From an uncultured Muribaculaceae bacterium (GTDB lineage Bacteria > Bacillota_I > Bacilli_A > RF39 > UBA660), in the NCBI GenBank assembly GCA_964616645.1, contig CAZTUM010000001.1, positions 9,318 to 73,317 of the forward strand: a DNA stretch of 64,000 nucleotides, read 5' to 3'. Positions 20,377 to 41,307 of this stretch are shown one piece after another. The translations under genes were made by a program, and so were the position numbers. The notes beneath the pieces are model-generated. The model ran no database searches and had not been told where the DNA came from. It saw only the letters and a list, made by a program, of their open reading frames with translations. The stretch's first letter is position 1. Each line of letters begins with the position of its first letter.

Positions 20377-20391
20377 TTTATGGAGGTTATT

Positions 20392-22543: not shown

Positions 22544-22569
22544 TATTTCATTTAGCTCATAACTTTTTA

Positions 22570-23121
22570 CTAAATCTTTTTTGGTAAATTTAAATTTAAT
22601 TCAAATAATAAATCCTTAATTTTAATATCTAGTTTTTTATGATAAGTAGTTGGTTTCCATACAAATTTATATTTATTTGCATTAGCTACTATTTTTGTTC
22701 CATCTAAATATTGATTAGAAATATCCAAATTAAATTCGTCTTCGATTGACTTAGTTATTAGTGTAAATATTTCATATTGATATGGTAATATATATTTATT
22801 TATACATTCTTTTATAGCATTATGACTAGGTTCTTCTTGGCGCATTAAATACATAACTCGTAAGTCAAATTTACACAAATCTTCTATTTCTCGTAATGAA
22901 CTTCTAAATTGAGAAAAACAATATAAAATAGTTGCAACCAAATTATAAGGATTATATCCATATCTTCCTTTTTTCTTTTTTTCATTTTCTATTATTATTC
23001 CAATTCCACTTTTATTTAAAATTGATATAAATTTGTCAATTTTAGTAAATTCCTCATTACATTTGTTTGAGGATACTAGAAAAAGGAATCTTTTTGTGTT
23101 AAAATATTCCACGTGATACAT
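22570..23121 (-). pseudogene. N-terminal part of the IS1182-family transposase, separated from its C-terminal part by a frameshift.
   Basis: 183 aa in a different frame from the downstream ORF; it ends 27 nt before the downstream ORF begins. Confidence 0.6.
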
Positions 23122-24843: not shown

Positions 24844-25841
24844 GCATTTGGAATATTTCTTCCTCCTGACCCTTCCTGTGTCGATGGTGTACTTACATAA
24901 TCTCCTTCGGCGTACATAATCGATGAGTTTCCACCATCTAAATTACAAGCATTATAAGCTCCATATCTTAATAATAAATTTGCCATTTGTTTTATACTCA
25001 TACCAACTATTCCGTTTGAATACTGTCTTCCATCGGATACTAGGAATAATACTATTCCATCTTTTCTTTGTGCAATCGCGGTTCTTTGAGCTTTTCCTAA
25101 GCCTCCGTCTCCTTTAAACTGTGCCATTTTACCATTTATTATTAAAAATGGTCCAAACTCTACCGCGTCTACCAGTCCATATCTATCTATAGCCGTTTGA
25201 GGTTCTTCTGTTGTAAGTATTAATATATTATCCTTATTAAATCCTACTATACCTCCGTTTTTACCTCCTACAGCTTCATTATCATAAATTATTTTCCCAT
25301 CCATTATAACTGCTCCTGTTGGAATTTTTGTTCTATTTTTACCATATAGATATCCACTTGCATTTATAGCAATTATTGCATTATTTTCCTCTGCTATTTC
25401 ATCTATTTTTTGTTTACCTTTATTTGATGAAGATACTAACTCTACACGTGATGGGTCATATATTACTGCTAAATAAGCTTTATATCCATCTTCTTCAATA
25501 GTTAATATTTTATATAAGTCATTCCCTTCATCTTTTTTTAATATTTGTTCTTCATAAATAGATGAATACGTTTCTTGTTCTTTAATATTACCTATTTGAA
25601 TAACACTTGTATCAATTTCGTTTGTTAAGCCAATTATACCGTTTCTTTTTAAAACATTTTCTATCATATTATCAGTATAAAATGTTCTAGCTATATATTT
25701 ATGAGTCATCGTGGACATCGCATTAGTAACTAAGAAATCTTTTACAAAAGTAAATGGCCCATAGAACAAAAATAATGTTATTATGGCTAATGTATCTATT
25801 ATCATAAATGTAATTACCCATTTTTTAGTTTTTCTTTTCAT
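24828..25841 (-). CDS. Membrane-anchored phosphodiester glycosidase family protein (NAGPA 'uncovering enzyme'-like, DUF2233).
   Basis: N-terminal TM helix; C-terminal RTAIAQRKDG...LFLVSDGRQ...NACNLDGGNSS, characteristic of the phosphodiester glycosidase family. Confidence 0.6.
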   Translation of the reverse strand: MKRKTKKWVITFMIIDTLAIITLFLFYGPFTFVKDFLVTNAMSTMTHKYIARTFYTDNMIENVLKRNGIIGLTNEIDTSVIQIGNIKEQETYSSIYEEQILKKDEGNDLYKILTIEEDGYKAYLAVIYDPSRVELVSSSNKGKQKIDEIAEENNAIIAINASGYLYGKNRTKIPTGAVIMDGKIIYDNEAVGGKNGGIVGFNKDNILILTTEEPQTAIDRYGLVDAVEFGPFLIINGKMAQFKGDGGLGKAQRTAIAQRKDGIVLFLVSDGRQYSNGIVGMSIKQMANLLLRYGAYNACNLDGGNSSIMYAEGDYVSTPSTQEGSGGRNIPNAWVLK

Positions 25842-25843
25842 GT

Positions 25844-27229
25844 TTACCTCCCAATTATATATGGACTATCATTTGTTCCTTCACCTGATAGTGCAATTAG
25901 ATTACCATCTAAATATATTACTGGTCTTATTTTTTTTGTATCGTTTATTTTTGATGCATATAAATTATTATTTTCTTCTATTACGTATAATATATTATTC
26001 ATATGGTCTTCTATTCCCAGTGATGTTAAGATATTGCTATGTGTATTTATGTATAAGTCTCCTATTTGGGGTAGACCAATGTATGTTTCAATTTTATTAT
26101 TATATATTAATCTATAATCATATGTATCTGTTTTATATTTACCTATATAGAATGGCCCTTTAACTAAGTATTCTTTATTTTCTAAGATATTGTAATAGTC
26201 ATTATTTAAATAATAAGCTATACTATCTTTATCTTTTATATCAAAAGTATTATTTTTTTTAGAAAAAATACTTTCTTTATCTATATCATCTTCTTCTATA
26301 TAGTCTTCTAATATCACTTTAACTGATGTATCTTGTTTAGAAATAATTCTCCATATTTTATTACTATATTCTACATATTCTCCCACACCAACATTAATTA
26401 GTTTGTAATCTTTATATTCATCTATTAAATAAGGATTTTCTATAGTGCCATCTCCAGATGTTAATAATAATTCTCCATCTATTGTTATTACTGGTCTTAT
26501 ACCATAGTGATTAGTATTATATTTTTCTGTTTTATTTATACCTCCTTTATCGAATACGTAATATAATTTATTAGTATTATCAAAATCCATTAACCAAAAA
26601 TACTCATTAATATTTAGGTATCCCTCATTAGCACCTGAGTTTAAATAGTCATTTAGACTTAGTAAAGTTAGTTTATATTCACTATTTTTAGTATTACATG
26701 TAATATTATCTATTTCTTCTATTTTATCTTCACAATAAATAGTATTTTTTAGGACTTCTTTATTATTTAAAGTATTATAAAATATTGAATAGGTATCTAT
26801 ATCATTTAAATAATTATTAATATATGATGTTTTATAGTTTGCTTCTTCACCATATGGGAGTAATGTTTGTATTTCTTCTGTTATTAATGTAATATTATTA
26901 TTTTCATCTATTTTTACTATTCTCCATAATCTACCAGAATAATGGATATAGTTATTAGTAACTTGTCCTTTAAAATAATATTCATTTGTTAATTCATTTT
27001 TAACTAAAGGGCTTGTTATCCCACTTAACTTATCTTCTTCGCTTGTTAAATATGTTAATAGATGATTATATATAGATATTGGTTCTGATATTTGGGTATT
27101 GTTATCTGTGTTTTTATGTTCTAATCTATAATAATGTATAAATCTATATCCATATATAATAAATAGTATGATGATAAATAAGATACTTGTATATATAAAT
27201 ATTTTGTCTTGTTTTATTTTCTTTCTCAT
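25844..27229 (-). CDS. Membrane-anchored extracytoplasmic protein with an internal duplication; function unknown.
   Basis: A single N-terminal TM helix. Two repeat units each end in IRPVI(T/Y)(I/L)DG(E/N)L(L/I)..SG(D/E)GT...(N/S)PY(L/I)I. Confidence 0.45.
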   Translation of the reverse strand: MRKKIKQDKIFIYTSILFIIILFIIYGYRFIHYYRLEHKNTDNNTQISEPISIYNHLLTYLTSEEDKLSGITSPLVKNELTNEYYFKGQVTNNYIHYSGRLWRIVKIDENNNITLITEEIQTLLPYGEEANYKTSYINNYLNDIDTYSIFYNTLNNKEVLKNTIYCEDKIEEIDNITCNTKNSEYKLTLLSLNDYLNSGANEGYLNINEYFWLMDFDNTNKLYYVFDKGGINKTEKYNTNHYGIRPVITIDGELLLTSGDGTIENPYLIDEYKDYKLINVGVGEYVEYSNKIWRIISKQDTSVKVILEDYIEEDDIDKESIFSKKNNTFDIKDKDSIAYYLNNDYYNILENKEYLVKGPFYIGKYKTDTYDYRLIYNNKIETYIGLPQIGDLYINTHSNILTSLGIEDHMNNILYVIEENNNLYASKINDTKKIRPVIYLDGNLIALSGEGTNDSPYIIGR

Positions 27230-27243
27230 TTTACACCTACTTA

Positions 27244-27915
27244 CTAAGCTCCAAAGTCATTTTGATAGCTAATTATACTGGTACTAATAATTCCATTCAT
27301 ATCTTTAAATTTATCTAATATATCTGTTTTTTCTTCTTTTATTTCTATTTCAAATGTTATTTCTGCTGTATCTTTGGTAATAGATTTACTTTTTAATTTA
27401 TGTTTAGGTAACCTTTTAATTTTTTCCATTACTTGTTTATCAATATCTACTTGATACTTTATAATAAATAGATATTTTGTTTCTTTTTTAAAACCTATTG
27501 AATATGTTATAAAATACAATAGCCCTAAAGCTACTGTTGCCACTAGGGCTACCAAATATAGTCCTGCACCTGACATTATACCTATTGTTATAGACCAAAA
27601 CATAAATGCAGTGTCTACTGGTTCTTTTACAGCTGTCCTAAAGCGAACGATTGATAAGGCTCCTACCATACCTAGTGATAATGAAAGGTTAGAATTGATT
27701 GTCCTTATTATTAATGCAGTAATCATACCTAATAGCATTAGGCATAATGCAAATGATTTTGAATATACAACTCCATTAAATGTTTTTTTGTATACATATA
27801 TAATGAATAAACCTAAGATAAACGCAGTTATTAAAGATAGAGATACATCTACTACACTTATTTTCCCAGTAAATTCATTTAATACACTTTTTTTAATTAT
27901 ATCTGTAATTCCCAT
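27244..27915 (-). CDS. DUF4956-family integral membrane protein.
   Basis: Multi-pass membrane N-terminal half plus a soluble C-terminal domain; occurs in the CotH/VTC context typical of this family. Confidence 0.55.
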   Translation of the reverse strand: MGITDIIKKSVLNEFTGKISVVDVSLSLITAFILGLFIIYVYKKTFNGVVYSKSFALCLMLLGMITALIIRTINSNLSLSLGMVGALSIVRFRTAVKEPVDTAFMFWSITIGIMSGAGLYLVALVATVALGLLYFITYSIGFKKETKYLFIIKYQVDIDKQVMEKIKRLPKHKLKSKSITKDTAEITFEIEIKEEKTDILDKFKDMNGIISTSIISYQNDFGA

Positions 27916-27928
27916 AATAAATACTCCT

Positions 27929-28609
27929 TTATTTTAAATTTCTACAGGTAGCAAATTTTGAATATGCTTCCCTATTTAGTGATACAGTTGATAATATAAT
28001 CGCGATTGGCTCTGGTAGTATCTCGTTATATTTAACTTCTAAAATTAGATAATTATCATCAATAACACTTGTATATGTACTATCATTATCAAATAAACAA
28101 TAATTATATACACCTGATTTTATTTGTTCATCAAATGTTATTCTTACTTCTGATATTGGATAGGTATATGCTAGTCTTTTATAGTCCACTATTACGGATG
28201 GAGAAAGATGTTTAACTTTCATATCTATAATAAATTTTTTTAAGATGTTATCTTTAGTTATATCTATATCATCTATATTACCACTTAATATTTTACTACA
28301 AATTTCTTTACTTAGCAAGACTGATTCTTTACTGGTCATATTATTATGTTTATATTTACATTCTAGTTTAATAAAGTTATCTTGCAGATTGTATATTCTA
28401 ATACGATATTTTTTTCTATATAGAACTCCATCTTGTTTTTCATGATAAGCAGTGCTGTTTAAATCATCAAAGTATAAGCTTCTTATTAAATAGGTGTTAT
28501 CTTCATTATATGAATTTTTATCTATATCAAGTAATAAAGATAATTTTTGTTTTAATATTTGTGCTGTTTGTTTACTAATTAAATATTTAATTTCATGTCT
28601 ATATTTCAT
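27929..28609 (-). CDS. VTC-domain (polyphosphate-polymerase-like, triphosphate-tunnel fold) protein.
   Basis: N-terminus MKYRHEIKYLISKQTAQIL...IRSLYFDD matches the conserved start of bacterial VTC-domain proteins. Confidence 0.6.
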   Translation of the reverse strand: MKYRHEIKYLISKQTAQILKQKLSLLLDIDKNSYNEDNTYLIRSLYFDDLNSTAYHEKQDGVLYRKKYRIRIYNLQDNFIKLECKYKHNNMTSKESVLLSKEICSKILSGNIDDIDITKDNILKKFIIDMKVKHLSPSVIVDYKRLAYTYPISEVRITFDEQIKSGVYNYCLFDNDSTYTSVIDDNYLILEVKYNEILPEPIAIILSTVSLNREAYSKFATCRNLK

Positions 28610-31482
28610 AATAAATCACCAAAGTATTCTTGCATTTGTGCATCTGTTAAGTTAAAGAATGATTTAGTTTGTTTAAGCATAATTGGTGTCCTTTTTTTTA
28701 CATAGTTTTTTAATCTTTCTACATTAGATATCCAATTATCATAACTTATATTCCATCTTTCACAGTTGCGAGGCATTTCTTTTTTATATATTTCATATAA
28801 TTCTTCTATTTTATTTAATAATTTTTCTTCTGTCCATATATTATTTAAATTATAAGATAGTCTTTCTACATATCTTGTTTTAAATTCTTCGTTTTTCATT
28901 AAGTTTCTTAGTAGAGTTGTTGGTACTTTTAGTCTACTCATTGGAGTTGTACTTGTTGAAAATTGATAATAGTTTTTAGTTACATTAAACATTGCCCAGT
29001 CTAAATCATAAAATATTGCTCGTAGTTTCCCATCAGATACATCTGGGTGTGAATAAAATCTGGCATTAACTATATCATTGTTTGTAGTATATGTTTCTGC
29101 AATCCAGAAATCTATTAAACTGTCTATATCAATTTTTGTTTTTATATATTCATAATTCTTTGTATCAGACATATTGTGAGTGCTAGTATAATTTACAATA
29201 TCTTTATACCAAGTGGTACTTCCACATGTGACATTATAATCTATTCTTGTTATATTTACATTTTCTTTATCTACATTATAATGATTAGATATAAATTCTG
29301 ATTCTATTTTTTCTCTAATATTATATATTCCCCAGTATTCTCCATTAATATATAGAATAATTGTTTTATATGCTTGAACATCTACAGTATCTAAATCTTC
29401 TAGGGTTGAGGTCATAAATATATCAGAAAAAGCTGCATATTCATAGTCAGTTGAAGCACTTCTTATAACTAATGTGTTAAATGATGAGAAGTCACGATTA
29501 TCAAAAACTTGATAGTTTAATTTACTTGCTCCATATTTACTTCTAAATTTTAGTTTAAAGCTTTTTTTAGGTAGTCCTCTGGTAGTACCTCCAAATAATT
29601 GAAATCCACATGAAATGTTAAAACTCCCATCTTCCTCAAAAAGCTCTGCATTCGCAGGTACTTCTAAGTCATTATCCCAAGAGGAATTATGTACTTTGTT
29701 AAAATCGCTTTTGTTTAATGATATGGACATTACTGGTACTGTATGATTTTCATTTATTATATAAGAGGATGTTTTTATTTCACTAGGAAGTTTATCTTCT
29801 TCATAACTTATTGCTTTTAATACTGTTGTCTTTGTAAGAAAAAGAGGACTTGTATATTTTTTAGATGTTTTATTTGGATTACTACCATCTAATGTATAAT
29901 ATATTGTCCCATTTCCTGTTAATTCTACACTAATTTGTTCAACATTATTATATATACCTGGAGTAACGCTCACTTCTGGAGCGTATGCTATTGAATTTAC
30001 TCCTTTTGCATTATTTTTCTTAGGAGTTGGAGTAGAAAAATAACATATTCCTTTATCTTCACATTTGCCTATACTATAATCTAATGGTACATTTGATACA
30101 AATATTGAATCTATTATTTTATTTTCTTTTACTAGATATATACTTTCTATTTCAGATATTTTAAAATTTGTATGGTTATAAGTGTTATTTGATAGATTAG
30201 TATCTCCTGATGCCATTAAGATATAATATTCTCCTGGTTTTAGATTGACATCTGGTAAATTATACATATCTTTTATACTTTCTTTGGTAGTTAGATAATA
30301 ATTTTTTAAATTTATTGTACTTTTACTAGTGTTTTTTATCTCTATCCAGTCATAATAACTGCCTCCGTTTTGAGGTAAATAGGAATTATTTTCATTCATA
30401 ACTTCGTTTATAACTAAATCATTATTAGTATTATTTATAGTTTCGTTATATTTTTTTATTCCTGTTTTATCGTTTGCATATCCTGGAGTAATATTACTTC
30501 CTTGATAGAAGGTATCATTTTCTTTTATATAAGCAAATCCATTAGGTAAATCTTCATATTCTATTATATCTACTATTTTGTTTTTGTTTGATAGTATTAC
30601 TTGACCTTTCTTTTCTAACAATTTAAATGATGTGTAGTTATCTTGACTACTATTTGTACCTGTATAAAAGAGGTATATTTCTCCTTTTTTTAAAGATATA
30701 TCTGGCAAATTATATTTATATGGTGTATTAATATCGTTAGATAAACTATATGTTTTTAAATTAACTGTATCATTAGAAGTATTAATAATTTCAATATATC
30801 CTGGGAAATCTCCTTCTTCGGTCATAAAATTACCTTTATTTCTTGGTAATATTTCATTAATTTTTATTGTATTTTCTTCTTCATATAAACTATTTATATA
30901 TTCATTACTACCTTCTTGGGTATTAGGATATCCAGGTGTTGGGGTTTTAGAAGTATATAGATTACCATTTAAATCTCTTGCTATTGTTTCGTTTTTATCA
31001 AGTGGTGTTACATCAATTGCATCTAGTACTTTGCCATTTGATTTCGTAAGTACTATAGTTTCTCCTCCGTTGGAACTTAATTTAAAGTTTGCATATAATC
31101 CTTCTTTATTTTCTCCTGTTAAATATACTATTAGGTATGATTTAGATTTAATTGTAGTGTCAGGGAACAACCATTTAATTTTGGTTTCATCATCAGACAA
31201 ACCATAGTTTTTTAAGTTTATATCATGACTAGAACCATTATATAGTTCTATCCAATCATATAAATTACCTTCTTTATCTGCATATGCACCTTTATTTGAA
31301 GACATCACTTCATTTATTATAAGTTTGTCAATATTTGGTTCTCCAGATGATGCATTTTCTTTTTCTTCTAACTTTTTACTTGTATTTTTATCTGCTAAAA
31401 TTCCTATAGTTATACCTAGTATTACTAATATTAGACATATTATAATAAATTTTCTATTTTGGTATAAAAATTTTCTATTCAT
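28606..31482 (-). CDS. cotH: CotH-family atypical kinase with an N-terminal signal anchor and three lamin-tail domains (LTDs).
   Basis: Three LTD-like repeats (DWIELYNGSSHDINLKNYGLSD, GYIEIINTSNDTVNLKTYSLSND, DWIEIKNTSKSTINLKNYYLTT), and a C-terminal CotH domain with FYSHPDVSDGKLRAIFYDLDWAMF. Confidence 0.8.
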   Translation of the reverse strand: MNRKFLYQNRKFIIICLILVILGITIGILADKNTSKKLEEKENASSGEPNIDKLIINEVMSSNKGAYADKEGNLYDWIELYNGSSHDINLKNYGLSDDETKIKWLFPDTTIKSKSYLIVYLTGENKEGLYANFKLSSNGGETIVLTKSNGKVLDAIDVTPLDKNETIARDLNGNLYTSKTPTPGYPNTQEGSNEYINSLYEEENTIKINEILPRNKGNFMTEEGDFPGYIEIINTSNDTVNLKTYSLSNDINTPYKYNLPDISLKKGEIYLFYTGTNSSQDNYTSFKLLEKKGQVILSNKNKIVDIIEYEDLPNGFAYIKENDTFYQGSNITPGYANDKTGIKKYNETINNTNNDLVINEVMNENNSYLPQNGGSYYDWIEIKNTSKSTINLKNYYLTTKESIKDMYNLPDVNLKPGEYYILMASGDTNLSNNTYNHTNFKISEIESIYLVKENKIIDSIFVSNVPLDYSIGKCEDKGICYFSTPTPKKNNAKGVNSIAYAPEVSVTPGIYNNVEQISVELTGNGTIYYTLDGSNPNKTSKKYTSPLFLTKTTVLKAISYEEDKLPSEIKTSSYIINENHTVPVMSISLNKSDFNKVHNSSWDNDLEVPANAELFEEDGSFNISCGFQLFGGTTRGLPKKSFKLKFRSKYGASKLNYQVFDNRDFSSFNTLVIRSASTDYEYAAFSDIFMTSTLEDLDTVDVQAYKTIILYINGEYWGIYNIREKIESEFISNHYNVDKENVNITRIDYNVTCGSTTWYKDIVNYTSTHNMSDTKNYEYIKTKIDIDSLIDFWIAETYTTNNDIVNARFYSHPDVSDGKLRAIFYDLDWAMFNVTKNYYQFSTSTTPMSRLKVPTTLLRNLMKNEEFKTRYVERLSYNLNNIWTEEKLLNKIEELYEIYKKEMPRNCERWNISYDNWISNVERLKNYVKKRTPIMLKQTKSFFNLTDAQMQEYFGDLL

Positions 31483-31616: not shown

Positions 31617-31988
31617 TTAACTATTTTGTGATAGTGGAAGTTCTAAATCATTAATTACACTATTTTCAGTATTTGTATTAGGTGATGAAGTTGATATTGC
31701 TGATGTATTTTCAATTTTTTCATTTACTATATTGGTTAAATGAGTTATAAAATCATTTTGCTCTTCGTCCATCAAACCATAGTAAAACAGTTTATCTATG
31801 TCACTATGATTAAATAACATAGCGGTTTTGGAATCCATTACTCCCTCTGGAAATAAACATCCACTGTAGTCATAAGTTATTTCGTTACCATTAGCTAAAA
31901 CAGTTGGATAATATCCTATAACCATCACTCTTTTATTTGCCTCTTTTAACAAAACTACTGACCCAATTGATAATAATTTTTTATTCAT
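31617..31988 (-). CDS. DUF4176-family protein (associated with T7SSb loci).
   Basis: Paralogous to ORF 32443-32763 (LGSVVLLK..KR.M.G....Y.GCL.PEG....). Confidence 0.55.
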   Translation of the reverse strand: MNKKLLSIGSVVLLKEANKRVMVIGYYPTVLANGNEITYDYSGCLFPEGVMDSKTAMLFNHSDIDKLFYYGLMDEEQNDFITHLTNIVNEKIENTSAISTSSPNTNTENSVINDLELPLSQNS

Positions 31989-32004
31989 TTTACTAAAATC
32001 CTTT

Positions 32005-32421
32005 CTATCTTGTTTTATTCTTACTCATTTGTGCTATTTCTGTTTCTAAATTATAATCTATTTTATTTACATCTTTATTATCTATAATCCATTGTTTCCA
32101 AAATTCAAATCTTTTTAAATCAAAATTAAATAATAAATTTGAAGATAAATTATTCAATACTTTCGTTGCTAGTGGATAAATTAATCTGTTTTTCTCTACT
32201 AATTTTTTCATTACGTTAGGAGTCATATATATGCCAAATGGTGGCTCATCATCCGAAAAATATGGACAAGCTACATAAACTCTTTCTCCAAAACTCAATA
32301 TTGAAAAATCTAATGAACTATATATTTCTCTTACCATTTCTTGGTCAAAATATGGCTGCATTTTTTGATAAAATTTTTTCTTGTCTGACTCTTTTTGTTG
32401 ATAAAATAATTCTTTATTCAT
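32005..32421 (-). CDS. Hypothetical cytoplasmic protein, a candidate immunity protein.
   Basis: 138 aa, no TM helix, nested between two DUF4176 genes downstream of the putative effector. Confidence 0.35.
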   Translation of the reverse strand: MNKELFYQQKESDKKKFYQKMQPYFDQEMVREIYSSLDFSILSFGERVYVACPYFSDDEPPFGIYMTPNVMKKLVEKNRLIYPLATKVLNNLSSNLLFNFDLKRFEFWKQWIIDNKDVNKIDYNLETEIAQMSKNKTR

Positions 32422-32442
32422 TTTTTTCTCTCCTTTAATCTA

Positions 32443-32763
32443 TTAATTTTGTGTGTTATTTTGGCTATTTTTATTTAACATACTATCTAAAAAATTTATA
32501 TATCTTTTGTGTTCATCATCACAATATCCTATAGCATATATTGTACTTATATCTTTATGATCAAATAACAAATTTTTATCTGAGGATTGTATACCTTCTG
32601 GATAAAGGCATCCTATATAATCCCATATTTTGTCTTGATTTTCATTAGCCTTAATTGCAAAACCAGTAATCATAATCCTTTTTTTTGCATTTTTAATCAA
32701 AACCACACTCCCTAAGGGTAAGTATTTTTTATATTTATCATTCATATTTATTTTCCCTTTCAT
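32443..32763 (-). CDS. DUF4176-family protein (associated with T7SSb loci).
   Basis: PLGSVVLIKNAKKRIMITGF...IGCLYPEGI pattern. Confidence 0.55.
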   Translation of the reverse strand: MKGKINMNDKYKKYLPLGSVVLIKNAKKRIMITGFAIKANENQDKIWDYIGCLYPEGIQSSDKNLLFDHKDISTIYAIGYCDDEHKRYINFLDSMLNKNSQNNTQN

Positions 32764-32874
32764 TTACTATCTTAATATTAACACCCTGGATTAATTATAT
32801 TAAATTATATATGTTTTGAATTATCCAGTCCATATTATATTAATATTTTTATAAAATTGTATTTAATTAAAGAT

Positions 32875-34851
32875 TTAATTATCTTCATAAATAATTTCAT
32901 CATATGCCCATTCTATTGCTTTACTACTAACTTTAGTTGCATATTTGTTAACGATACCACTATCAAGTATGTCGATAAGCACGTTAGATTCATGCTTTGT
33001 AGCCATCGTTATGTTCACCGTAGTTGCTGATTCATAAGTTGCGGACCCTATGTCTTCGGATAGCTTATCCATTCCCAGTTCTTCCATCATTTGCTTTGTT
33101 TCATTTGTATCTAATTGCATTTCTTCTGTTTTCGCTATATTTGTTTTTACTTGTTCTGTTGCTTTATCTACTAGAGGATTAACGATAGTTGTATTAACTG
33201 TTGTAACAACCCCAGCTTTAATAGCTTCTGATGTTGCAGCACTAAAATCAAATTCACCATCCAATGATATACTAGCATATTCTTTTAAATATTCCTTACC
33301 CATTGATGTTCCTACTTTAGTAACTAAGCCTGATGTTCTTGGACTGCTTATACCCAATCTATTATCAATTGCATCGGAAAGAGCTTTTGAGCCTTCGCCG
33401 TATGTTAAATATGTAGCTCCAACCTCTATTGCACCTAATGCCATTCCATAGCTAGATGCTGTATCAAAATCATATCCTTTATTAAGTGCTCCTTCAGTCC
33501 CTTTGCCAATAGCTCTTAATCCATTTGTCGCGCATTTCATCGCTACTCCACCTGGCAAATATAATATTGCAATTGTTCCTGTTGTTTCTCCTATCCATTC
33601 ACCCACTGAATGCCAATTAGAATATGCAGATACACTATTTAAATGTGCTGATGCTATTAAATCATAAGTTTCTTCTGCATAATTTACTGACACAAAATCT
33701 TCTGCCCATGTAGCAGTAGGTATGAAGGGCCTATCTAATAATCTTCCTAATACCGTTACTATACCGTCAGTTATTTCTTCAAATATGTGCAAAACACCAC
33801 AACCAGTACTAGCTCCCAAAGTTTTTGTATTTTCTACGATCTTTGAGAAAGTGTTCATATTATACCAATTTATTTCATCTTCTGTTGCAATACCCATTTT
33901 CATTTTTTGATTTATTATTTTTTCTTCTACGTCTTTTGCGGAAGTGTGAATATCATACATTTCAATGTCTTTCTCTGTTGCATTACCCAATTTTATGTCA
34001 ATTTCTATTTTCGGCCAATTACAGTTAAGTTCTTTATCTTGCTCTTGTATTATATATAATTTATTTAATGTTATATTATCTTTTAAATCGTTTAATCGTT
34101 CTTTTTCTTCATTTGTTAAATTACCTTTAAAGTTATAGTAATCAATTTCATACTCTAATAATTGGTTTTCTTCCACATAATAGGAATATGTTCCTGGAGT
34201 TTTATCAGATAAAATACTTCTTTGAGTCATTATGCTTAGCTGTATTGATGTATATTTATCTATTTGCTTTATTTGTTCAGCCTTTTCATCATCTGTTAAA
34301 TTAGTAGATAAATTTATTAAATTTTTTTCACATTTTGCTTTTTTTTCTAAATCTTGCCTCTTAAAATGATAATCTCCATTTGATTTATATGTTGCCATTC
34401 TATCTTCTATACGATACAATTCTGCTAAATTCCTTCGGACTTCTAATTCTTGTTTCATCTCATCATTTAACATCCCTGATTTTTCATATTTTTCTAACAT
34501 ATCCATGAGAATTTGGTTGTATTCTCTAGCATACGCATCCATTTGAATACTATATTGCATTTTTTCTGCTTCTGTCATATTAGTATCAATTGTTGAATTT
34601 TCTGTAAATTCTTGCAATAATGTCATATATTCACTAGAAAATTTTTCATTTTCCATTAGGCTTGATTTAGCTGCATCAACTTTAGTTATTAAATCTTTTA
34701 TGTCATTGTAACACTTATAAATTAATTCATTTATACCATCTTCTGATGCTAAATTTTCCGCTACTTCCCCTATACATCTATGTATTAACGTATTAGCACA
34801 AGAAAGCTTATTATAAGCACTGAGGAATAGTCTTGCTTCAGTTTTAAACAT
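32875..34851 (-). CDS. Putative T7SS substrate or effector. The N-terminal half is helical and LXG-like; the C-terminal region is Gly/Ala/Thr-rich.
   Basis: 658 aa, with no signal peptide. It sits downstream of WXG-like and small helper genes. The C-terminus is compositionally distinct, with a run of GxxxG-like spacings. Confidence 0.4.
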   Translation of the reverse strand: MFKTEARLFLSAYNKLSCANTLIHRCIGEVAENLASEDGINELIYKCYNDIKDLITKVDAAKSSLMENEKFSSEYMTLLQEFTENSTIDTNMTEAEKMQYSIQMDAYAREYNQILMDMLEKYEKSGMLNDEMKQELEVRRNLAELYRIEDRMATYKSNGDYHFKRQDLEKKAKCEKNLINLSTNLTDDEKAEQIKQIDKYTSIQLSIMTQRSILSDKTPGTYSYYVEENQLLEYEIDYYNFKGNLTNEEKERLNDLKDNITLNKLYIIQEQDKELNCNWPKIEIDIKLGNATEKDIEMYDIHTSAKDVEEKIINQKMKMGIATEDEINWYNMNTFSKIVENTKTLGASTGCGVLHIFEEITDGIVTVLGRLLDRPFIPTATWAEDFVSVNYAEETYDLIASAHLNSVSAYSNWHSVGEWIGETTGTIAILYLPGGVAMKCATNGLRAIGKGTEGALNKGYDFDTASSYGMALGAIEVGATYLTYGEGSKALSDAIDNRLGISSPRTSGLVTKVGTSMGKEYLKEYASISLDGEFDFSAATSEAIKAGVVTTVNTTIVNPLVDKATEQVKTNIAKTEEMQLDTNETKQMMEELGMDKLSEDIGSATYESATTVNITMATKHESNVLIDILDSGIVNKYATKVSSKAIEWAYDEIIYEDN

Positions 34852-34868
34852 AATGTTAACTCCTTTTT

Positions 34869-35198
34869 TTAAAATCTAATCCTAATTAAGGAAGATATTT
34901 TTTCAGTGCGGATTCTATTTTGTAATTTTGATATTTTTTCATTATAACTGTTAATCTTATTAGATGCGATATCAATAAAATTATCTGTGGATGTTGCACA
35001 TTTGTTAAATAGCCCCGCCTGAAGAGGAACATCATTTAAAACATGCCCACCATTTTTAAAATCTAATTTTGCTTCGTTTAAATATGACTGACATTCTTTT
35101 ATTTTTGAAATTAAATTATTAAGATAATTTATTTTTGTATTGTAATCTGAAATTTTTTTTTCTAATCGTGCTACTTCTGCTTCAGTTAGTTTGTCCAT
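34869..35198 (-). CDS. Small coiled-coil helper protein (YwqH/DUF5082-like, Lap-like targeting factor).
   Basis: 109 aa with a predicted helical hairpin, immediately upstream of the large putative effector. Confidence 0.35.
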   Translation of the reverse strand: MDKLTEAEVARLEKKISDYNTKINYLNNLISKIKECQSYLNEAKLDFKNGGHVLNDVPLQAGLFNKCATSTDNFIDIASNKINSYNEKISKLQNRIRTEKISSLIRIRF

Positions 35199-35260
35199 AA
35201 ATATTCCTCCACTTAATTCTAAAACAAGATGATATTTAAATCATCTTGTTAAAATAAACA

Positions 35261-35875
35261 CTATAATAATTGTTTTTTATTTTCAGCAACTATATTTAAA
35301 TTATCTCTAACTTTAGTTATTTGGCTCTTATAATCAGCTACATTATTATTGAAATTTTCAAATGTTGATATTACTTCTGCTCTATTAGAACCATCTAACC
35401 AATTATTTAGTAAATTATTTTTTGATTCATTTAATGTATTTACAAAATTTTCAAATGTTGTTGGAAAATTTGTAAATGCTTCTGCATCCGCTATTATTGC
35501 TGGATCAGTCCAACTTTCTACAGTTTCAGTAGGTACAGCTATAACTGAATCAACATTAAGTGTTACTGCTAATTCATTCCCAATTGTACAAGTTCCTCCA
35601 CTTGCTACAATATGTTTTTGTAATGGAAGTACTTCGTTGTTATTAACACTAACTATAATTTTTTGTAAATTTTTAACTAAGTCTGTTACTGCAGTATATA
35701 CTTTAGATAAATCAGTTAAATTTGCAACTGCGTCAGACCCTTTCCAATGACTTTTTAAGTTTTCTATAGTTTGAGAAAAACTAGTAATTAAATCTTTCCC
35801 TGTTGTATTTGTTACATTAAACATTTCTTCTGCTTGAGTTCCAACTGTATTTGGATTTACGCAATGTATTGCCAT
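35261..35875 (-). CDS. Tandem WXG100-like protein (two fused EsxA-like helical hairpins).
   Basis: HWKGSD (W-x-G) at about residue 43, and a second W-containing turn, NWLDGSN, at about residue 150. There is no signal peptide, and the gene is adjacent to EssC. Confidence 0.5.
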   Translation of the reverse strand: MAIHCVNPNTVGTQAEEMFNVTNTTGKDLITSFSQTIENLKSHWKGSDAVANLTDLSKVYTAVTDLVKNLQKIIVSVNNNEVLPLQKHIVASGGTCTIGNELAVTLNVDSVIAVPTETVESWTDPAIIADAEAFTNFPTTFENFVNTLNESKNNLLNNWLDGSNRAEVISTFENFNNNVADYKSQITKVRDNLNIVAENKKQLL

Positions 35876-36021
35876 AGTTAACCACTCTCCCTTACTCTAT
35901 ATGACAATTTTTATGAAACACCATTTTGGAGTATCATTATCTTAATTATAATACACCAAGTTGGTGTTCGTCAAGACAAAATTATGCTAAAAGTGATATT
36001 TTTGTCTTGGGTGATTAAATT

Positions 36022-36252
36022 ATGATTGGAAAAACTTTAAAATATATGCGTGTTAAAAAAGGATTAAATCAAAAAGAATTAGGAAAATTAATAAATTTAA
36101 ATCAACAAAGTTTATCTAGGTATGAAAAAAATCAAAGGATTATCTCCTTTGATATGATAGAAAAAATAGCAAACAGCTGTGGGTACCAAATATATTTTGA
36201 AAATGATAATGAAAGATTTCAAATAAAAGATATTGAAAGAAAAATTGATTGA
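36022..36252 (+). CDS. XRE-family helix-turn-helix transcriptional regulator.
   Basis: LKYMRVKKGLNQKELGKLINLNQQSLSRYEKNQR is a classic Cro/C1 HTH. Confidence 0.7.
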   Translation: MIGKTLKYMRVKKGLNQKELGKLINLNQQSLSRYEKNQRIISFDMIEKIANSCGYQIYFENDNERFQIKDIERKID

Positions 36253-36292
36253 TTAATAATAAATCCAAAAATATTTTATTACCTATTTATAA

Positions 36293-39200
36293 TTACATTT
36301 TTTCTACTATTTTAATAAATTTAACTTGTCCATTTTCTACTATATATCCATAGTTATTACCTATAATAGTATAGTAATCTTGAGTTACTTTGGTAGGTTT
36401 AATTAAGTATTGTTCTGCAAATCCATCTCCTACCCATAAACCAGAACTTGGATTTATTGATGCTTTATACCATGATTCAAATTCATAAGGTTTAAATCCT
36501 GATGGTATATCTATAAATATAAAATGTACTTTTAATGTTTCTTTTGATTTATTTAAAATATTAATAAATATATCTTTATCTTTATTAGATAATGTACTTA
36601 TAAATTTATCAAAGCCAATAATAACACACATTATGTCTTCTATATTTTTTATAGCTCTAATATTATTGTTATTATTTTTTAATACTTCATCTACATTATT
36701 AACAAATTTATTTACATTATTTAGCATTTCTGTATAATTATTATTTAAATATTTTATTTTCTTAAAATCACTATTTTCATATATATATTTAGCATCCATT
36801 ACAAGGGTATTTGTATTACTATTATCTAAAATACGTAAGAATTTATCTATAAATGATATATTTTCATCTAATTCTCTAAAACTAATTAGATAACTTAATT
36901 CATCTTTCAATTTTATACTAGCTACACCTAAAGTCTTTTTTATCATACCAACAGGTATGAAATTTAATCCTATTTCTCCTTTAGCTATATGCTTAAATTC
37001 TACTTCTTTAGGTAGTACTGGTATTGGTTTCATCTTTGTTTTGTAGGTCATAAATGTTTTTATTGAAGTAGCTAGAATATTTTTATATAACTCATCTTTA
37101 TCAAATGCATAAGCAGTTTGAAATTCTAATACTCTATCTTTCTTAAATAAACCTCTACCATATAGTTTAGATGGTACTATACCATTAGTATTTCCATATA
37201 TACTTCTATAATCAAATTCATTGTTAAGTTGTAGGGAGTATATTGTTTTAAATGTTTGTAATAATTTACTCTTTACTCCGTTTATAGAACTAACTGTAAG
37301 TATAAAGTATATACCAAACTTATTAGCTTCACGGGTTAATTCATATAGTTTTTCTGATTCATTATTATAAAGCTCTGAGAATACATCAAATTGATTTATA
37401 ATTATTACAAGATTAGGTATTTTTTGTTCTGATTTAGATATAAAGTCTTTATAATTACCATTAAATTGTAAGAATTTTTTTCTTCTAAAATCTATTTCGG
37501 TTTTAATATACTTAAATAAGTTTTCTAATTTTTCATCTTCTCCAGAATGTACTATATCTCCTACATGTGAACTATCAATAAAATTATTTAATACTTCTGT
37601 ACCAAAATCTAGTATATAAATACCTAATTCTTCTGGTGTATATGTGGTTATTAATGAATAAATTAAAGTTGTTAGAAACAGTTCTTTACCACTTCCACTT
37701 GCTCCATAAAGTAAGAAGTTTCCTTCGTTGCTAAGCGGAACAGTAAGTATATTTTGTTGTTGTTTGTGTGGTTCATCATATTCACCAACTATTGGATTTA
37801 AAACAAAGTTTTCTTTTTGATAATTATACTTTGCTTTTAATTTATCAACATAAATTGTTTTTGGAATACTCCCTAACCATAGTGGGGTTATTTTTAATTT
37901 TTGGGTTTTTGATGTTTCTATTATGTAATTAAGTATATTAGGAAGTTCTTCTCCTTTATGTACAAATTGTGTATTATTTTTTTCTATATTAGATTTTTTT
38001 ATTATAGCCCCTATATCATCTACAAAATCTATTGTAGAATCTACTAAAGTTATTTTTTTATCGCTTTCATAATAAGGCATACCTGCATAAGCACTTTGTC
38101 CTAATGCAAAGAATTCATTATAACCTACTTGTAAATAGAATCTTCCTGTATCTTTTAGCATTACTGCCTCTGGACGTTTTAACATATCGTTTGAATCTGT
38201 TTTATCTTGTACTTTTAAGCATATTCTAAATTTAGAGTTAGACCAAATTTGGTCATCAACTACACCACTTGGTTTTTGAGTTGCTAGTATGAGGTGTACC
38301 CCCAAGGAACGGCCTATACGTGCTGTTGAAATTAATTCATCCATAAACTCTGGTTGTTGGCTTTTAAGTTCTGCAAACTCATCACTTATTATAAATAAAT
38401 GACTCATTGGCTCATCTAGTTTACCTGCTCTATAAAGTTCTTGATATTTATAAATATCCATACTGCTTTCATTTAATTTTTCACGGGCTTGTTTAAACAT
38501 GGTCTGTCTTCTTTTAAGTTCACTATTAATACTAGCTAAACTTCTTTTTATTTCAACTACATCCAAATTAGTAAGAGTCCCTACTACGTGTGGAAGTTTT
38601 ACGCCTGTTTCTCTATTATCAAATGTAAGAGCAAGTCCACCCCCTTTATAATCTATAAGTACAAATTGTACTTCTTCTGGACTATAATTTACCGCCATGG
38701 AAAGTATATAAGTTATTATCCACTCTGATTTACCACTTCCTGTCATACCAGCAACAAGTCCATGTGGTCCATGTGCTTTTTCGTGTAAATCAAGTTTAAA
38801 TAATTCTCCTTGTTCATCTATTCCTACAGGAGCTTCTAATGATTTTGTTATATTATTTTCTTTCCATCTATTAATTATATTTAATTGATTAACATTTCCT
38901 ACATCAAACATTTCTAAAAAACCATATTTTTTAGGAAGTACAAATTTACCACTATTAATATCCATAGGTATATTACTTATTTTTGTAATGCAGTTATTTA
39001 ATGAAAAGTTTACTATATCAGGTTTAAATGCAATTTGATTATCTGATGACATTTGATTAGTAAATATACCACTTAATCCATAAGCTGCATTTATAAACAT
39101 ACTACACTCATTAGGGATAGTATTAAGTTTATTATCACTCATTATTATACTATAACCTAAATTAACTTGACTTTTTAATATTTCACTAATAAAAGAATTA

Positions 39201-40900
39201 CTTTTTAATGTTGAAATATCATCTGTTATTATTAGGTAATATGGAATAAACTGTATTTTTTCACCATTTTCACTGCTTGTTTCTTTTCTATAGTTATATT
39301 CTTCCATTAACAGTCTTGTTATTTTATTTATATCATCTTTATTTGTTCCAAAATACCTAGTACTTTTTTCATTATCCCATATAAATGGTATACTTTTATA
39401 TTTTTCCCAATATTTTTTGTTTTTTTCATTGGTTAAAATAATAATTCTTAACATGTCATATCCATGATAAGCCATTACTTGCAATAACAAATTATCAAAG
39501 AAATTATTCACCATATTTTTTTCACCTATTATAGCAACTTTATTATTATTTCTAAAATTTAGTGTTATAGGTACATTTTCTATTTCTTTATTATCTTTTG
39601 CTATTTCAGTAATTAAGTTCTTTAAATCATCTTCTTCCATAGTAAAATGTTCTTCTGGATATTTTATTTCTATGTCAGGAATTTTATTTCCCAAACCTAA
39701 TCTAAGTTCTAAAAAATCTGTATGTTCTAATTTCCTTTCCCATAAATTACGTGATTTATTTAAAATAACATCTCTTACATTTTCTATAGGTAAATTATTC
39801 TCAGATAGTACTGCTTTTTGGTAATTAACCTCTTTCATTATTTCTTGATGTTTACTATCAATATATTTTTTATATTTTTTTACTCTTGCTTTTTCTTTTT
39901 TTATTTTTTTTCTTTTATTATAAAACTTTTGAGCTAATGGGAAAACTATCATAGCAATTAACATACAAACTGTCATAAGTATTGATGAAAATTGTTCTTT
40001 TAGAGTACTTTCACCACTTAATACTTTTTGAAGAGCCATAACTCCTGTTACCATACTCATCATACCCATAGTAAGCATAGGTGCTATGGTAAATATTAAA
40101 GGCATATCTTCTTGTTTTTCTTTTTGGGTAGGAGGGTCTAAATTAAATATTTTTCTCTCTATTTGTCTTTTAAATCTTGGTGGTCTTTGAAAATATTGTG
40201 ATTTATCAAAGAATAATACTTCTTTATCTATATATTCTTTATAATCTGTAATAGGATTTTCTTTAACTATTCTTTGGCTTAATTTTTCTGTATTGAATGT
40301 AATATCATTGTTATTATTACTTATTAATAATAATGAGCCAAAATAATATATGAATAATCCACAAATAAAAATTGAATCACCTAATTGTAAATACATTTCA
40401 TTTGATAATATATTATTAATAAATAATTTATTATCTTGATTTAAATTTTTTATTAATATTCCACCGTTATCTTGATTATAAGTAATATTTATTTGTTGTT
40501 TTGAAAATAGATTATTATTAACATTTATATCACAAGTATTATCACTACCAATTATTATGCTGTTGTTTTTTGTCCAATCAATAATTAAATTTTCAAAATT
40601 TTCACAACTAGGTAGTATATATAATATATATTTTTCTTTAGTATTTAGGTTAATTATATAATAAATATTATTTATCTTTAATATTTCTGATTCTTTAAAT
40701 TCAACTCCATTTAAATCATTATTTATAAAATTAGTACTTATTTTTATATCTGCATTACTTTTTAATACCCAATTATTTTCTTCTTCTACAACGTTTAGCA
40801 AGTTTTTTGAATTACTATCTAGTATCCAATAATTACCTGATGTTTGTTCCGGTAATGTGGTAACACTTATATTATTAACACTTTCTACTATTACTTTCAT
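36293..40900 (-). CDS. essC: Type VII secretion FtsK/SpoIIIE-family ATPase EssC (YukB-like).
   Basis: 1535 aa with an FHA-like N-terminus, two TM helices at about residues 270-330, and three P-loop ATPase domains (Walker A GMTGSGKSE; degenerate GASGSGKE in D2; degenerate D3). Confidence 0.85.
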   Translation of the reverse strand: MKVIVESVNNISVTTLPEQTSGNYWILDSNSKNLLNVVEEENNWVLKSNADIKISTNFINNDLNGVEFKESEILKINNIYYIINLNTKEKYILYILPSCENFENLIIDWTKNNSIIIGSDNTCDINVNNNLFSKQQINITYNQDNGGILIKNLNQDNKLFINNILSNEMYLQLGDSIFICGLFIYYFGSLLLISNNNNDITFNTEKLSQRIVKENPITDYKEYIDKEVLFFDKSQYFQRPPRFKRQIERKIFNLDPPTQKEKQEDMPLIFTIAPMLTMGMMSMVTGVMALQKVLSGESTLKEQFSSILMTVCMLIAMIVFPLAQKFYNKRKKIKKEKARVKKYKKYIDSKHQEIMKEVNYQKAVLSENNLPIENVRDVILNKSRNLWERKLEHTDFLELRLGLGNKIPDIEIKYPEEHFTMEEDDLKNLITEIAKDNKEIENVPITLNFRNNNKVAIIGEKNMVNNFFDNLLLQVMAYHGYDMLRIIILTNEKNKKYWEKYKSIPFIWDNEKSTRYFGTNKDDINKITRLLMEEYNYRKETSSENGEKIQFIPYYLIITDDISTLKSNSFISEILKSQVNLGYSIIMSDNKLNTIPNECSMFINAAYGLSGIFTNQMSSDNQIAFKPDIVNFSLNNCITKISNIPMDINSGKFVLPKKYGFLEMFDVGNVNQLNIINRWKENNITKSLEAPVGIDEQGELFKLDLHEKAHGPHGLVAGMTGSGKSEWIITYILSMAVNYSPEEVQFVLIDYKGGGLALTFDNRETGVKLPHVVGTLTNLDVVEIKRSLASINSELKRRQTMFKQAREKLNESSMDIYKYQELYRAGKLDEPMSHLFIISDEFAELKSQQPEFMDELISTARIGRSLGVHLILATQKPSGVVDDQIWSNSKFRICLKVQDKTDSNDMLKRPEAVMLKDTGRFYLQVGYNEFFALGQSAYAGMPYYESDKKITLVDSTIDFVDDIGAIIKKSNIEKNNTQFVHKGEELPNILNYIIETSKTQKLKITPLWLGSIPKTIYVDKLKAKYNYQKENFVLNPIVGEYDEPHKQQQNILTVPLSNEGNFLLYGASGSGKELFLTTLIYSLITTYTPEELGIYILDFGTEVLNNFIDSSHVGDIVHSGEDEKLENLFKYIKTEIDFRRKKFLQFNGNYKDFISKSEQKIPNLVIIINQFDVFSELYNNESEKLYELTREANKFGIYFILTVSSINGVKSKLLQTFKTIYSLQLNNEFDYRSIYGNTNGIVPSKLYGRGLFKKDRVLEFQTAYAFDKDELYKNILATSIKTFMTYKTKMKPIPVLPKEVEFKHIAKGEIGLNFIPVGMIKKTLGVASIKLKDELSYLISFRELDENISFIDKFLRILDNSNTNTLVMDAKYIYENSDFKKIKYLNNNYTEMLNNVNKFVNNVDEVLKNNNNNIRAIKNIEDIMCVIIGFDKFISTLSNKDKDIFINILNKSKETLKVHFIFIDIPSGFKPYEFESWYKASINPSSGLWVGDGFAEQYLIKPTKVTQDYYTIIGNNYGYIVENGQVKFIKIVEKM

Positions 40901-40908
40901 ACTATCAC

Positions 40909-41163
40909 CTATACTAAAGCCAAAAGTGTACCATTTTTTATTCCAGAATTTATTATTTCAACATTATAATCATAAAATACACCCTCAATAACATTCAACA
41001 AAGATAATTTATTATTTATCGCAAAACATCCTGTCATTTCATTTATTGCTTTATTTAAAATAACAATAACTTCTCCTACTGTTTTGTTAACTGGTATAAA
41101 TATATTATATTGTTTACCAACACTTGGAACAATTAATTCAACATTAACTTTATTCCCTTTCAT
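40909..41163 (-). CDS. esaB: EsaB/YukD ubiquitin-like T7SS protein.
   Basis: 84 aa, beta-grasp-like; C-terminus GIKNGTLLALV resembles YukD; immediately upstream of essC. Confidence 0.7.
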   Translation of the reverse strand: MKGNKVNVELIVPSVGKQYNIFIPVNKTVGEVIVILNKAINEMTGCFAINNKLSLLNVIEGVFYDYNVEIINSGIKNGTLLALV

Positions 41164-41261
41164 ATAATCACTCTACCTTATGATAATAGTATATTATAAA
41201 TATTTTAATTTTGCAATAACGAATGTAAGAAAAATAAATAATAAATTAGCTAACTTTTAAT

Positions 41262-41300
41262 TAAAAAAATAAGGATAATCTTTTTTCGATTTCCTTATTT
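41262..41300 (-). terminator. Rho-independent terminator of rpsR. The T7SS promoter region lies in the roughly 140 bp that follow.
   Basis: Hairpin ataagga...tccttat (41269-41298), with a T-run on the minus strand. Confidence 0.6.
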
Positions 41301-41307
41301 ATTAAAT

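Follow-up and report, generated by a model that had tools for sequence, protein, structure and literature searches.

A compact type VII secretion system (T7SS) locus was analysed at positions 31617-41307 of a 64-kb stretch of contig CAZTUM010000001.1 (the window), which comes from an uncultured low-GC gut "Bacilli" lineage. The locus encoded an EssC ATPase, a YukD-like protein, a tandem WXG100 protein and a module with a putative effector, and the absence of EssA, EssB and EsaA from the window, pointed out in a first-pass annotation, was confirmed. On balance, we regard the locus as probably a functional, self-contained and reduced T7SS cassette, whose EssC belongs with T7SSd/e-like systems and not with T7SSb.

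Eight co-oriented genes on the minus strand came directly after rpsF-ssb-rpsR (42354-41308), and every open reading frame (ORF) of at least 40 amino acids (aa) in 31617-41307 was accounted for. The positions and orientation given in the first-pass annotation proved correct for all eight genes. Its gene list also held (effector, two DUF4176 genes, candidate immunity gene, WXG-like gene and helper), with Pfam identifying the DUF4176 and WXG100 families. The genes of the cassette were as follows.

40909-41163, minus strand: 84-aa TsxB, YukD/EsaB-type and ubiquitin-like (AlphaFold2 fold, Foldseek, adjacency to essC)
36293-40900, minus strand: 1535-aa TsxC/EssC membrane ATPase (TIGR03928, FHA, FtsK_SpoIIIE)
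35261-35875, minus strand: 204-aa tandem WXG100 protein, TsxA candidate (PF06013, 1.5e-9)
34869-35198, minus strand: 109-aa putative coiled-coil helper, Lap/YwqH-like (sub-threshold YwqH-like match, E = 4e-4)
32875-34851, minus strand: 658-aa putative polymorphic effector (conservation pattern; no Pfam domain)
32443-32763, minus strand: 106-aa DUF4176 protein (PF13780, 2.6e-26)
32005-32421, minus strand: 138-aa candidate immunity protein (no family match; co-variation with the effector)
31617-31988, minus strand: 123-aa DUF4176 protein, last gene of the cassette (PF13780, 4.7e-24)

Identification of the EssC ATPase

The 1535-aa protein scored 1009.6 bits against the EssC equivalog TIGR03928 (cutoff 778.4) over model positions 2-1295 of 1296, while the rival families scored 54.7 bits (FtsK) and 12 bits (plasmid-transfer TraB). 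Pfam analysis detected an FHA domain at residues 115-177 and FtsK_SpoIIIE domains, and two hydrophobic helices started at about residues 266 and 302. The layout was an N-terminal FHA region, two transmembrane (TM) helices, a DUF/D0 domain and the P-loop domains D1-D3. The Walker A motif of D1 (GMTGSGKS) was intact and invariant across relatives, D2 carried a conserved GSGKE variant, and D3 was degenerate, as is usual for EssC.

The best PDB match was Bacillus subtilis YukB (9qks, 417 bits), followed by EccC proteins. The phmmer match to YukB started at residue 235, leaving the N-terminal FHA region unaligned. The identity of the 1535-aa protein as EssC is beyond reasonable doubt, and the FHA N-terminus, the two TM helices and the ATPase domains described in the first-pass annotation were all recovered.

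The YukD-like and tandem WXG100 proteins

The 84-aa protein itself had no match in Pfam or NCBIfam. Its AlphaFold model (pLDDT 91) had a beta-grasp fold, and a Foldseek search of the PDB returned ubiquitin-like proteins, including the ubiquitin-like domains of EccD5 and EccD3; the second and third matches were the EccD5 domain of the ESX-5 complex. PF08817 (YukD) weakly matched 11 of 28 orthologues (best E = 0.0026), and a custom EsaB hidden Markov model (HMM) gave E = 1.1 on the window protein. A profile of the YukD-like alignment yielded only noise against PDB sequences, so the YukD-like identity leans on structure prediction. The gene adjoined essC in 25 loci. The earlier YukD/EsaB call is thus backed by fold, EccD matches, weak orthologue matches and adjacency to essC, but not by a family match of the protein's own. 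The protein ended in LLALV and had no C-terminal Gly-Gly.

The AlphaFold2 model of the 204-aa protein (pLDDT 94, pTM 0.88) contained helices at residues 8-43, 47-91, 127-158 and 165-203, with hairpin turns at W44-K-G46 and W159-L-D-G162. The N-terminal half matched the approximately 96-aa single WXG100 family of sister loci (hhalign 93%), while the C-terminal half was collinear with the partner WXG100 family but matched it weakly (hhalign 17%). Foldseek against the PDB returned generic four-helix bundles only (Dps/ferritin, E 0.06 or worse), which is consistent with a four-helix bundle and points to no specific homologue. An exhaustive profile search collected 168 representatives of the tandem WXG100 family, nearly all of 200-210 aa and aligned end to end. 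Judging by the model, we read the 204-aa protein as a putative single-chain counterpart of an EsxA/EsxB-type pair; the evidence for a fusion origin is suggestive only. No description of fused tandem WXG100 proteins was found in the searchable literature.

All three parts of the broad-sense T7SS core (EssC, WXG100 protein and ubiquitin-like protein) were therefore present at the locus, the WXG100 part in tandem form and not as the usual protein of about 100 aa. Against three orthologues, the ratio of nonsynonymous to synonymous substitution rates (dN/dS) was 0.11-0.14 for EssC, 0.18 for the YukD-like protein and 0.11-0.17 for the 204-aa protein. These values, within an overall range of 0.11-0.19, indicate that the three genes are maintained by selection.

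Conservation and mobility of the cassette

A scan of GTDB species representatives revealed 31 related loci. The closest, from 86% down to 40% EssC identity, all came from metagenome-assembled genomes (MAGs) of uncultured "Bacilli bacterium" sampled from human (Hadza), sheep, rabbit and other gut or rumen sources; farther matches came from Coriobacteriia MAGs and Ruminococcus. Clustering of the neighbouring genes showed that only essC (32 loci, window counted) and the YukD-like gene (25 loci) were conserved. The next commonest neighbours were single WXG100 pairs (clusters c2 and c4), DUF4176 genes, tandem WXG100 genes (c5) and effector families, and the other recurrent ones were housekeeping genes (LtaS-like sulfatase, Tex, AsnB, IF-2, ABC-F and spermidine synthase-like).

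Across the 24 EssC genes of the MAG clade, yukD was the one conserved partner of essC, with WXG100-type genes always nearby, and intact EssC ORFs of the 1535-aa type occurred in more than 20 species-level genomes. The comparison of locus architecture in relatives, suggested with the first-pass annotation, thus left yukD and essC as the only conserved genes, accompanied by WXG100-type genes.

The site of the cassette varied: it lay beside rpsR in the window, between infB and rbfA in L041 and L042, and by a large serine recombinase gene in L043, which was 88% identical in its YukD-like protein. The L041/L042 insert comprised genes for YukD, EssC, two tandem WXG100 proteins, a 181-aa protein, a 1115-aa effector, a 69-aa protein and a DUF4176 protein, and its insertion between infB and rbfA indicates that the cassette is a discrete island. 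Both are Joint Genome Institute metagenome contigs, and the insert (L041:4911-16244) interrupts the rimP-nusA-ylxR-infB-rbfA operon. Four loci (L002, L003, L013 and L017) contained two neighbouring yukD-essC pairs of divergent sequence; in L002 the essC copies, at 3290 and 10001, were about 40% identical, that is, paralogous minimal systems in one locus.

Search for further machinery

HMMs for EsxA, EsaA, EssA, EsaB, EssB and EssC were built from the T7SSb loci of Listeria, Bacillus mycoides and Limosilactobacillus fermentum and run unfiltered on all six-frame ORFs of at least 30 aa in the window and in L001-L032. The search for accessory genes covered the 64 kb of this genome and flanks of up to 10 kb in the relatives. 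The best E value was 0.03 (noise) for EssB/YukC, 0.37 for EsaA/YueB and 0.85 for EssA/YueC, the EssA HMM being weak (positive control 18.8 bits). On the same ORF set, the EssC HMM gave about 750 bits and the EsxA HMM found the WXG100 genes. On an independent B. mycoides locus, EsaA was recovered with 378 bits, EssB with 314, EsaB with 47 and EssA with 18.8. Because these controls recovered EsaA and EssB well and EssA weakly, the negative result is solid for the first two and softer for EssA.

Pfam analysis of every plausible membrane protein in the window returned ordinary functions, with no YukC and no EssA, and no window ORF above 600 aa had multiple TM helices. With both kinds of search negative, the reported absence of EssA, EssB and EsaA from the window was upheld, with the softer evidence for EssA.

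The accessory proteins of Coriobacteriia and Ruminococcus were also used as phmmer queries, with three Coriobacteriia kinases standing for TsxD. They gave no match in the window, and the sole match in the MAG loci was a weak, partial kinase-like ORF at the end of L018, 9 kb from essC. Neither the window nor the MAG loci contained homologues of the 1893-aa and 1964-aa proteins or of their small TM neighbours (phmmer), or the PP2C phosphatase TsxF and the DUF6382-FHA protein TsxJ (Pfam, phmmer). No DUF5050 or Tad-type match was found among the locus proteins and the scanned flanking membrane proteins.

Several candidates for hidden machinery were rejected. The recurrent polytopic neighbour of 635-680 aa (cluster c14) was an LtaS-type sulfatase, and Tex, AsnB, IF-2, ABC-F and spermidine synthase were housekeeping proteins. 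The 461-aa single-TM protein at 25844-27229 was rejected as EssB, since its TM helix is N-terminal and not central and the gene belongs to a CotH/VTC/DUF4956/NAGPA cluster.

Phylogenetic placement and comparison with known systems

A neighbour-joining tree of EssC was rooted on an EccC-type protein of Streptomyces. The 24 MAG sequences formed one clade (100 of 100 bootstraps), which joined Coriobacteriia and Ruminococcus in 97 of 100 replicates, whereas the four canonical T7SSb sequences formed a separate clade (100/100) with the window clade outside it. The window EssC shared 32-33% identity with those of Coriobacteriia and Ruminococcus versus 24-28% with those of canonical T7SSb. The description of the locus as T7SSb-like is therefore imprecise, and its framing as a reduced T7SSb was not sustained.

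The Coriobacteriia loci encoded a membrane Ser/Thr kinase, a PP2C phosphatase, a DUF6382 protein, a separate FHA protein and an 1893-aa protein, which is the T7SSd/T7SSe inventory of Garrett, Higginson & Palmer 2024 (PMC11217815). The Ruminococcus loci encoded a protein of about 1960-1990 aa and had several conserved neighbour genes without a Pfam match. The phosphothreonine motif of the FHA domain (GR...SxxH...NG) was kept in the EssC of Coriobacteriia and Ruminococcus and degenerate in the window clade: the window EssC reads GS and SKQQ, and the Arg position varies among S, R, I, K, N and A in close relatives. Judged from these sequences, the system has an EssC related to T7SSd/e-like systems and appears to have lost the kinase, the phosphatase, the DUF6382/FHA protein and the large envelope protein of these systems, along with the phosphothreonine-binding residues of its own FHA domain. 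Given the T7SSd/e-like grouping, these are likelier to be the lost parts than EssA, EssB and EsaA, and such a pattern would be expected from an ancestor under kinase regulation that went on to lose the kinase and the partners related to it.

Ten T7SS arrangements, a-j, are known, with TsxA, TsxB and TsxC as a near-universal core, and each described subtype has at least one component beyond this core (Garrett et al. 2024, PMC11217815). The window was compared with the S. aureus Ess and B. subtilis Yuk/Yue systems and with the T7SSb loci of Listeria, B. mycoides and L. fermentum (L033, L034, L036 and L038). It resembles them in its FHA-bearing EssC with two TM helices and P-loop domains, in a separate YukD/EsaB protein encoded beside essC, in a WXG100-type substrate, and in the DUF4176 genes, helical partners, polymorphic toxin and immunity gene located downstream. 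It differs in that EssB/YukC, EsaA/YueB and EssA/YueC were not detected in the window or the related loci, in an FHA region that could not be aligned to YukB, and in a WXG100 protein that is a 204-aa tandem, whereas EsxA of T7SSb has about 100 aa and forms homodimers.

With the T7SSd/e-like loci examined (Coriobacteriia and Ruminococcus; L022, L023, L025, L027, L028 and L031), the window shares the closest EssC outside the MAG clade, an FHA-bearing TsxC and an adjacent YukD-like gene. The WXG100 pairs of many MAG clade members recall T7SSe. Unlike these systems, the window has no TsxD kinase, TsxF PP2C phosphatase, TsxJ DUF6382/FHA protein, TsxI envelope protein or small TM proteins TsxH and TsxK, and the FHA motif conserved in TsdC/TseC is degenerate. 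Three Actinomycetota loci (L022, L023 and L031, from Coriobacteriales/Coriobacteriia MAGs) carried YukD-like and DUF6382 genes together with an FHA-bearing EssC; a kinase gene was also present in L023 and L031, and in L023 one for a PP2C phosphatase, which makes the inventory T7SSe-like. T7SSd as published for Actinomycetota was reported without a ubiquitin-like protein.

The simplest described subtype is T7SSg, which has an FHA-less ATPase, a beta-propeller protein and Tad gene neighbours (PMC11217815). A short parts list around TsxA, TsxB and TsxC is common to T7SSg and the window; however, TsgC lacks the FHA domain present in the window, and T7SSg has the DUF5050 beta-propeller protein TsgL and always lies beside Tad pilus genes (PMC11217815). 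None of the described subtypes a-j combines an FHA-bearing EssC, YukD and a tandem WXG100 protein without any further linked component. The survey of Garrett et al. was RefSeq-based (PMC11217815) and would not sample these MAG lineages. No earlier description of a T7SS with only the A, B and C components in gut MAGs was found in the searchable literature.

A similar neighbourhood was seen in Agathobacter rectalis DFI.5.28 (NZ_CP143948.1, L035), which had WXG100, YukD, FHA and EssC and no EsaA, EssA or EssB within 9 kb. Its EssC was about 30% identical and lay outside the MAG clade without a supported partner, only 2 of 100 bootstraps placing it with canonical T7SSb; its FHA domain was annotated as a separate ORF, and its WXG100 protein was of single length. 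From this bare neighbourhood, stripped-down loci may be commoner in gut Bacillota than reported. This cultured gut Lachnospiraceae strain also carries Imm59 genes, and the 252-kb record, labelled a "plasmid", may in fact be part of a chromosome.

The putative effector module

Orthologues of the 109-aa gene (L002:16237-16632, L003:16262-16660, L041:11670-12215 and L043:16494-16910) shared a conserved DFxNGGHV motif in the alignment. They bear an extra N-terminal hydrophobic helix, and the window copy starts after this helix. The family was confined to loci with this effector type and missing from much of the clade.

The 658-aa protein had 9 homologues among 5.8 billion proteins. Pfam analysis of 12 family members (the 658-aa protein and 11 homologues) detected no domain, the LXG domain (PF04740) included, and a profile search of the PDB was empty. 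Kinship to the pre-toxin-TG T7SS toxin of B. mycoides was considered and dropped, since hhalign gave no relation. The protein had a conserved helical N-terminal region, a glycine-rich middle and a variable extreme C-terminus. Because its homologues were conserved over residues 1 to about 480-590 and diverged afterwards, it follows the polymorphic-toxin pattern, and the layout of such toxins (conserved N-terminal region, variable C-terminus, neighbouring helical partners and an immunity candidate) was present.

DUF4176, a chaperone family associated with T7SS substrates, recurred in 11 related loci. The 138-aa protein had no family match in Pfam or NCBIfam. Its homologues came after related effectors in L008 and L043, with a divergence that paralleled that of the effector, a sequence pattern that fits a putative immunity protein without being proof. 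Toxin modules that change fast, carried by little-known Bacilli with small genomes in the guts of humans, ruminants and rabbits, point to antagonism between bacteria.

Evaluation of alternative explanations

Several points weigh against a self-contained system. Every T7SS studied by experiment needs extra membrane components (PMC11217815, PMC12637312), the essential ones being EssA, EssB and EsaA in T7SSb and EccB, EccD and EccE in T7SSa. For the relatives, all of them MAGs or metagenome contigs, no more than 10 kb of flank was covered, and unlinked accessory genes, whether EssB-like, kinase-like or novel, are possible beyond the 64 kb and flanks searched. A divergent small single-pass EssA-like protein could be missed, the EssA HMM being weak, and the helix-bearing 109-aa orthologues could be an unrecognised small membrane component. 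The tree was built by neighbour joining, a distance method; T7SSb was represented by only four sequences, and T7SSc and T7SSf-j by none. A split system, with further machinery (EssB/EsaA/EssA-like, a T7SSd/e kinase or envelope protein, or novel) at unlinked sites of the genome, is an unlikely explanation that still carries real weight: the essential membrane components and the limited view speak for it, as do the partial kinase-like ORF in L018 and the warning of Garrett et al. that neighbourhood analysis can miss components (PMC11217815). However, no accessory gene was ever linked to the 24 EssC genes (40-86% identity) or found on the additional metagenome contigs, although core genes cluster with essC in T7SSa-j. 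From genome to genome the cassette changes place as one unit, and the phosphothreonine site of the FHA domain is degenerate, as it should be where a kinase partner is truly gone. The first-pass annotation had offered missing components encoded elsewhere or a reduced system; the conserved neighbours of the 24 EssC genes and the infB-rbfA island favour the reduced system, while its framing as a reduced T7SSb fell away.

That essA, essB and esaA of an ordinary T7SSb were merely displaced elsewhere in the genome is very improbable. EssC does pass an NCBIfam model named for Firmicutes EssC, and its FHA-bearing architecture is typical of T7SSb, but its low identity to the four canonical proteins, its position outside their clade and its grouping with T7SSd/e-like systems contradict this, as do the FHA region that phmmer did not align to YukB and the tandem protein in place of an EsxA-type single WXG100. 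Moreover, the canonical loci examined keep esxA-esaA-essA-esaB-essB-essC contiguous. A decaying remnant of a larger T7SS that has lost secretion is hardly credible: accessory genes are lost, the phosphothreonine residues are degenerate and the 109-aa gene lacks the helix of its orthologues, yet the 1535-aa ORFs are intact in more than 20 species-level genomes, the core genes have low dN/dS, the D1 Walker A motif is invariant, and diverse effector modules turn over beside a conserved core, which is typical of a toxin-delivery locus in active use. The idea that the 1535-aa protein is a conjugative or DNA-translocating ATPase of the FtsK/SpoIIIE family, to which its FtsK_SpoIIIE domains and the serine recombinase near the cassette in L043 might point, has virtually no probability left. 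It is already refuted by the EssC equivalog score and by YukB and EccC as the best solved relatives; YukD-like, WXG100 and DUF4176 genes flank the gene, and the ORF list and Pfam showed no relaxase or other conjugation genes at the locus. The locus is accordingly a genuine T7SS locus, as first annotated.

Proposed mechanism

In B. subtilis, cryo-electron microscopy showed YukB as the central unit of the channel, with its FHA and DUF domains holding YukD between them and with YukC dimers as an outer crown (Oka et al. 2025, PMC12637312). By analogy, EssC hexamers of the reduced cassette would form a membrane channel through their two TM helices, while YukD, held in a clamp of FHA region and DUF/D0 domain, would stabilise the assembly. 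The main task of the retained, phospho-blind FHA region may then be to grip the YukD-like protein. The 204-aa tandem WXG100 protein would take the role of EsxA as a ready-made single-chain "dimer", being co-secreted and/or activating the ATPase. The 658-aa effector would be targeted with its small helical partner and the DUF4176 chaperones and neutralised by the 138-aa immunity protein, the downstream genes forming an interbacterial-toxin cassette. We tentatively propose that EssC and the YukD-type protein might be a complete translocon that works without a pseudokinase, a kinase or an envelope-spanning partner, with the tandem WXG100 protein feeding it as a one-chain substitute for the EsxA dimer, and so a new subtype beyond T7SSa-j.

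Which part forms the channel in monoderm T7SSs, and which accessory proteins are mechanistically needed, are open questions. If the proposal is true, a lineage that keeps three core genes under purifying selection and moves them as a unit is a natural experiment, and it would argue that an EssC-YukD core is sufficient for secretion. The cassette would then be the simplest T7SS, a three-gene system for heterologous reconstitution and cryo-electron microscopy, and the single-chain WXG100 "dimer" would help to work out how the ATPase is engaged by proteins of the EsxA type.

Transcription signals

Three features were located around the operon start and the substrate genes.

About 41262-41300, minus strand: rpsR intrinsic terminator, hairpin and U-run (-11.8 kcal/mol, z = -3.07)
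41164-41261, minus strand: T7SS operon leader (intergenic), which carries weak sigma-70-like hexamers and a AAGGTAGAG ribosome-binding site
35945-35974, minus strand: strong sigma-70-like promoter match TTGACG-18-TATAAT (an 11/12 consensus match only)

The predicted rpsR terminator was borne out by its fold (z = -3.1) and the U-run after the hairpin; only 1 of 200 shuffles folded as well. Between this terminator and the 84-aa gene, where the first-pass annotation had placed the operon promoter, the hexamer pair TTGCAA-17-TATACT was found at 41216-41188. Promoter-like hexamers in this DNA of 25% GC were not above chance (95 found versus 90 expected from shuffles), and a promoter in this interval is plausible from the sequence. 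The best match of the region, TTGACG-18-TATAAT, precedes the 204-aa gene, so the substrate module may own a promoter. The 62-bp gap upstream of the 109-aa gene contained a hairpin and a good ribosome-binding site.

Neighbouring genes and host

One antisense gene, on the opposite strand, separated essC from the substrate genes.

36022-36252, plus strand: 76-aa Xre-type helix-turn-helix (HTH) protein (HTH_3, E = 4e-14)

This gene was present in the same-species contig L032 and absent from all other related loci, and its product is a possible local regulator. A terminator-like hairpin of the minus strand (36153-36131) lay within it. In close relatives, a spermidine-synthase-like gene occupied its position.

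The 64-kb window had a GC content of about 25%, and no tRNA gene or Rfam family at the gathering threshold was found in it. Pfam analysis identified SpoIIR, an M23 peptidase, a class A penicillin-binding protein and LytR-CpsA-Psr, and we take the 496-aa ORF at 53-1543 to resemble SpoIVA from its N-terminal sequence. These sporulation and cell-wall genes indicate that the host is a walled, spore-forming, low-GC member of the Bacillota.

Directly downstream of the cassette, the minus-strand cluster at 24828-31482 encoded a 958-aa CotH kinase/lamin-tail-domain protein, a VTC-domain protein, a DUF4956 membrane protein, the family-less 461-aa single-TM protein and a NAGPA-domain protein. Adjacent ORFs of 342 and 183 aa at 21515-23121 (minus strand), between a polysaccharide cluster and an asparagine-synthase-like gene, resemble a split transposase on the strength of sequence alone. 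Co-oriented genes span 15 kb at 6607-21480 (plus strand) and presumably make up a surface polysaccharide locus, to judge by ORF sequences and TM counts only: two 10-TM proteins could be O-antigen-ligase-like and flippase-like, and the remaining genes resemble glycosyltransferase or sugar-modifying genes.

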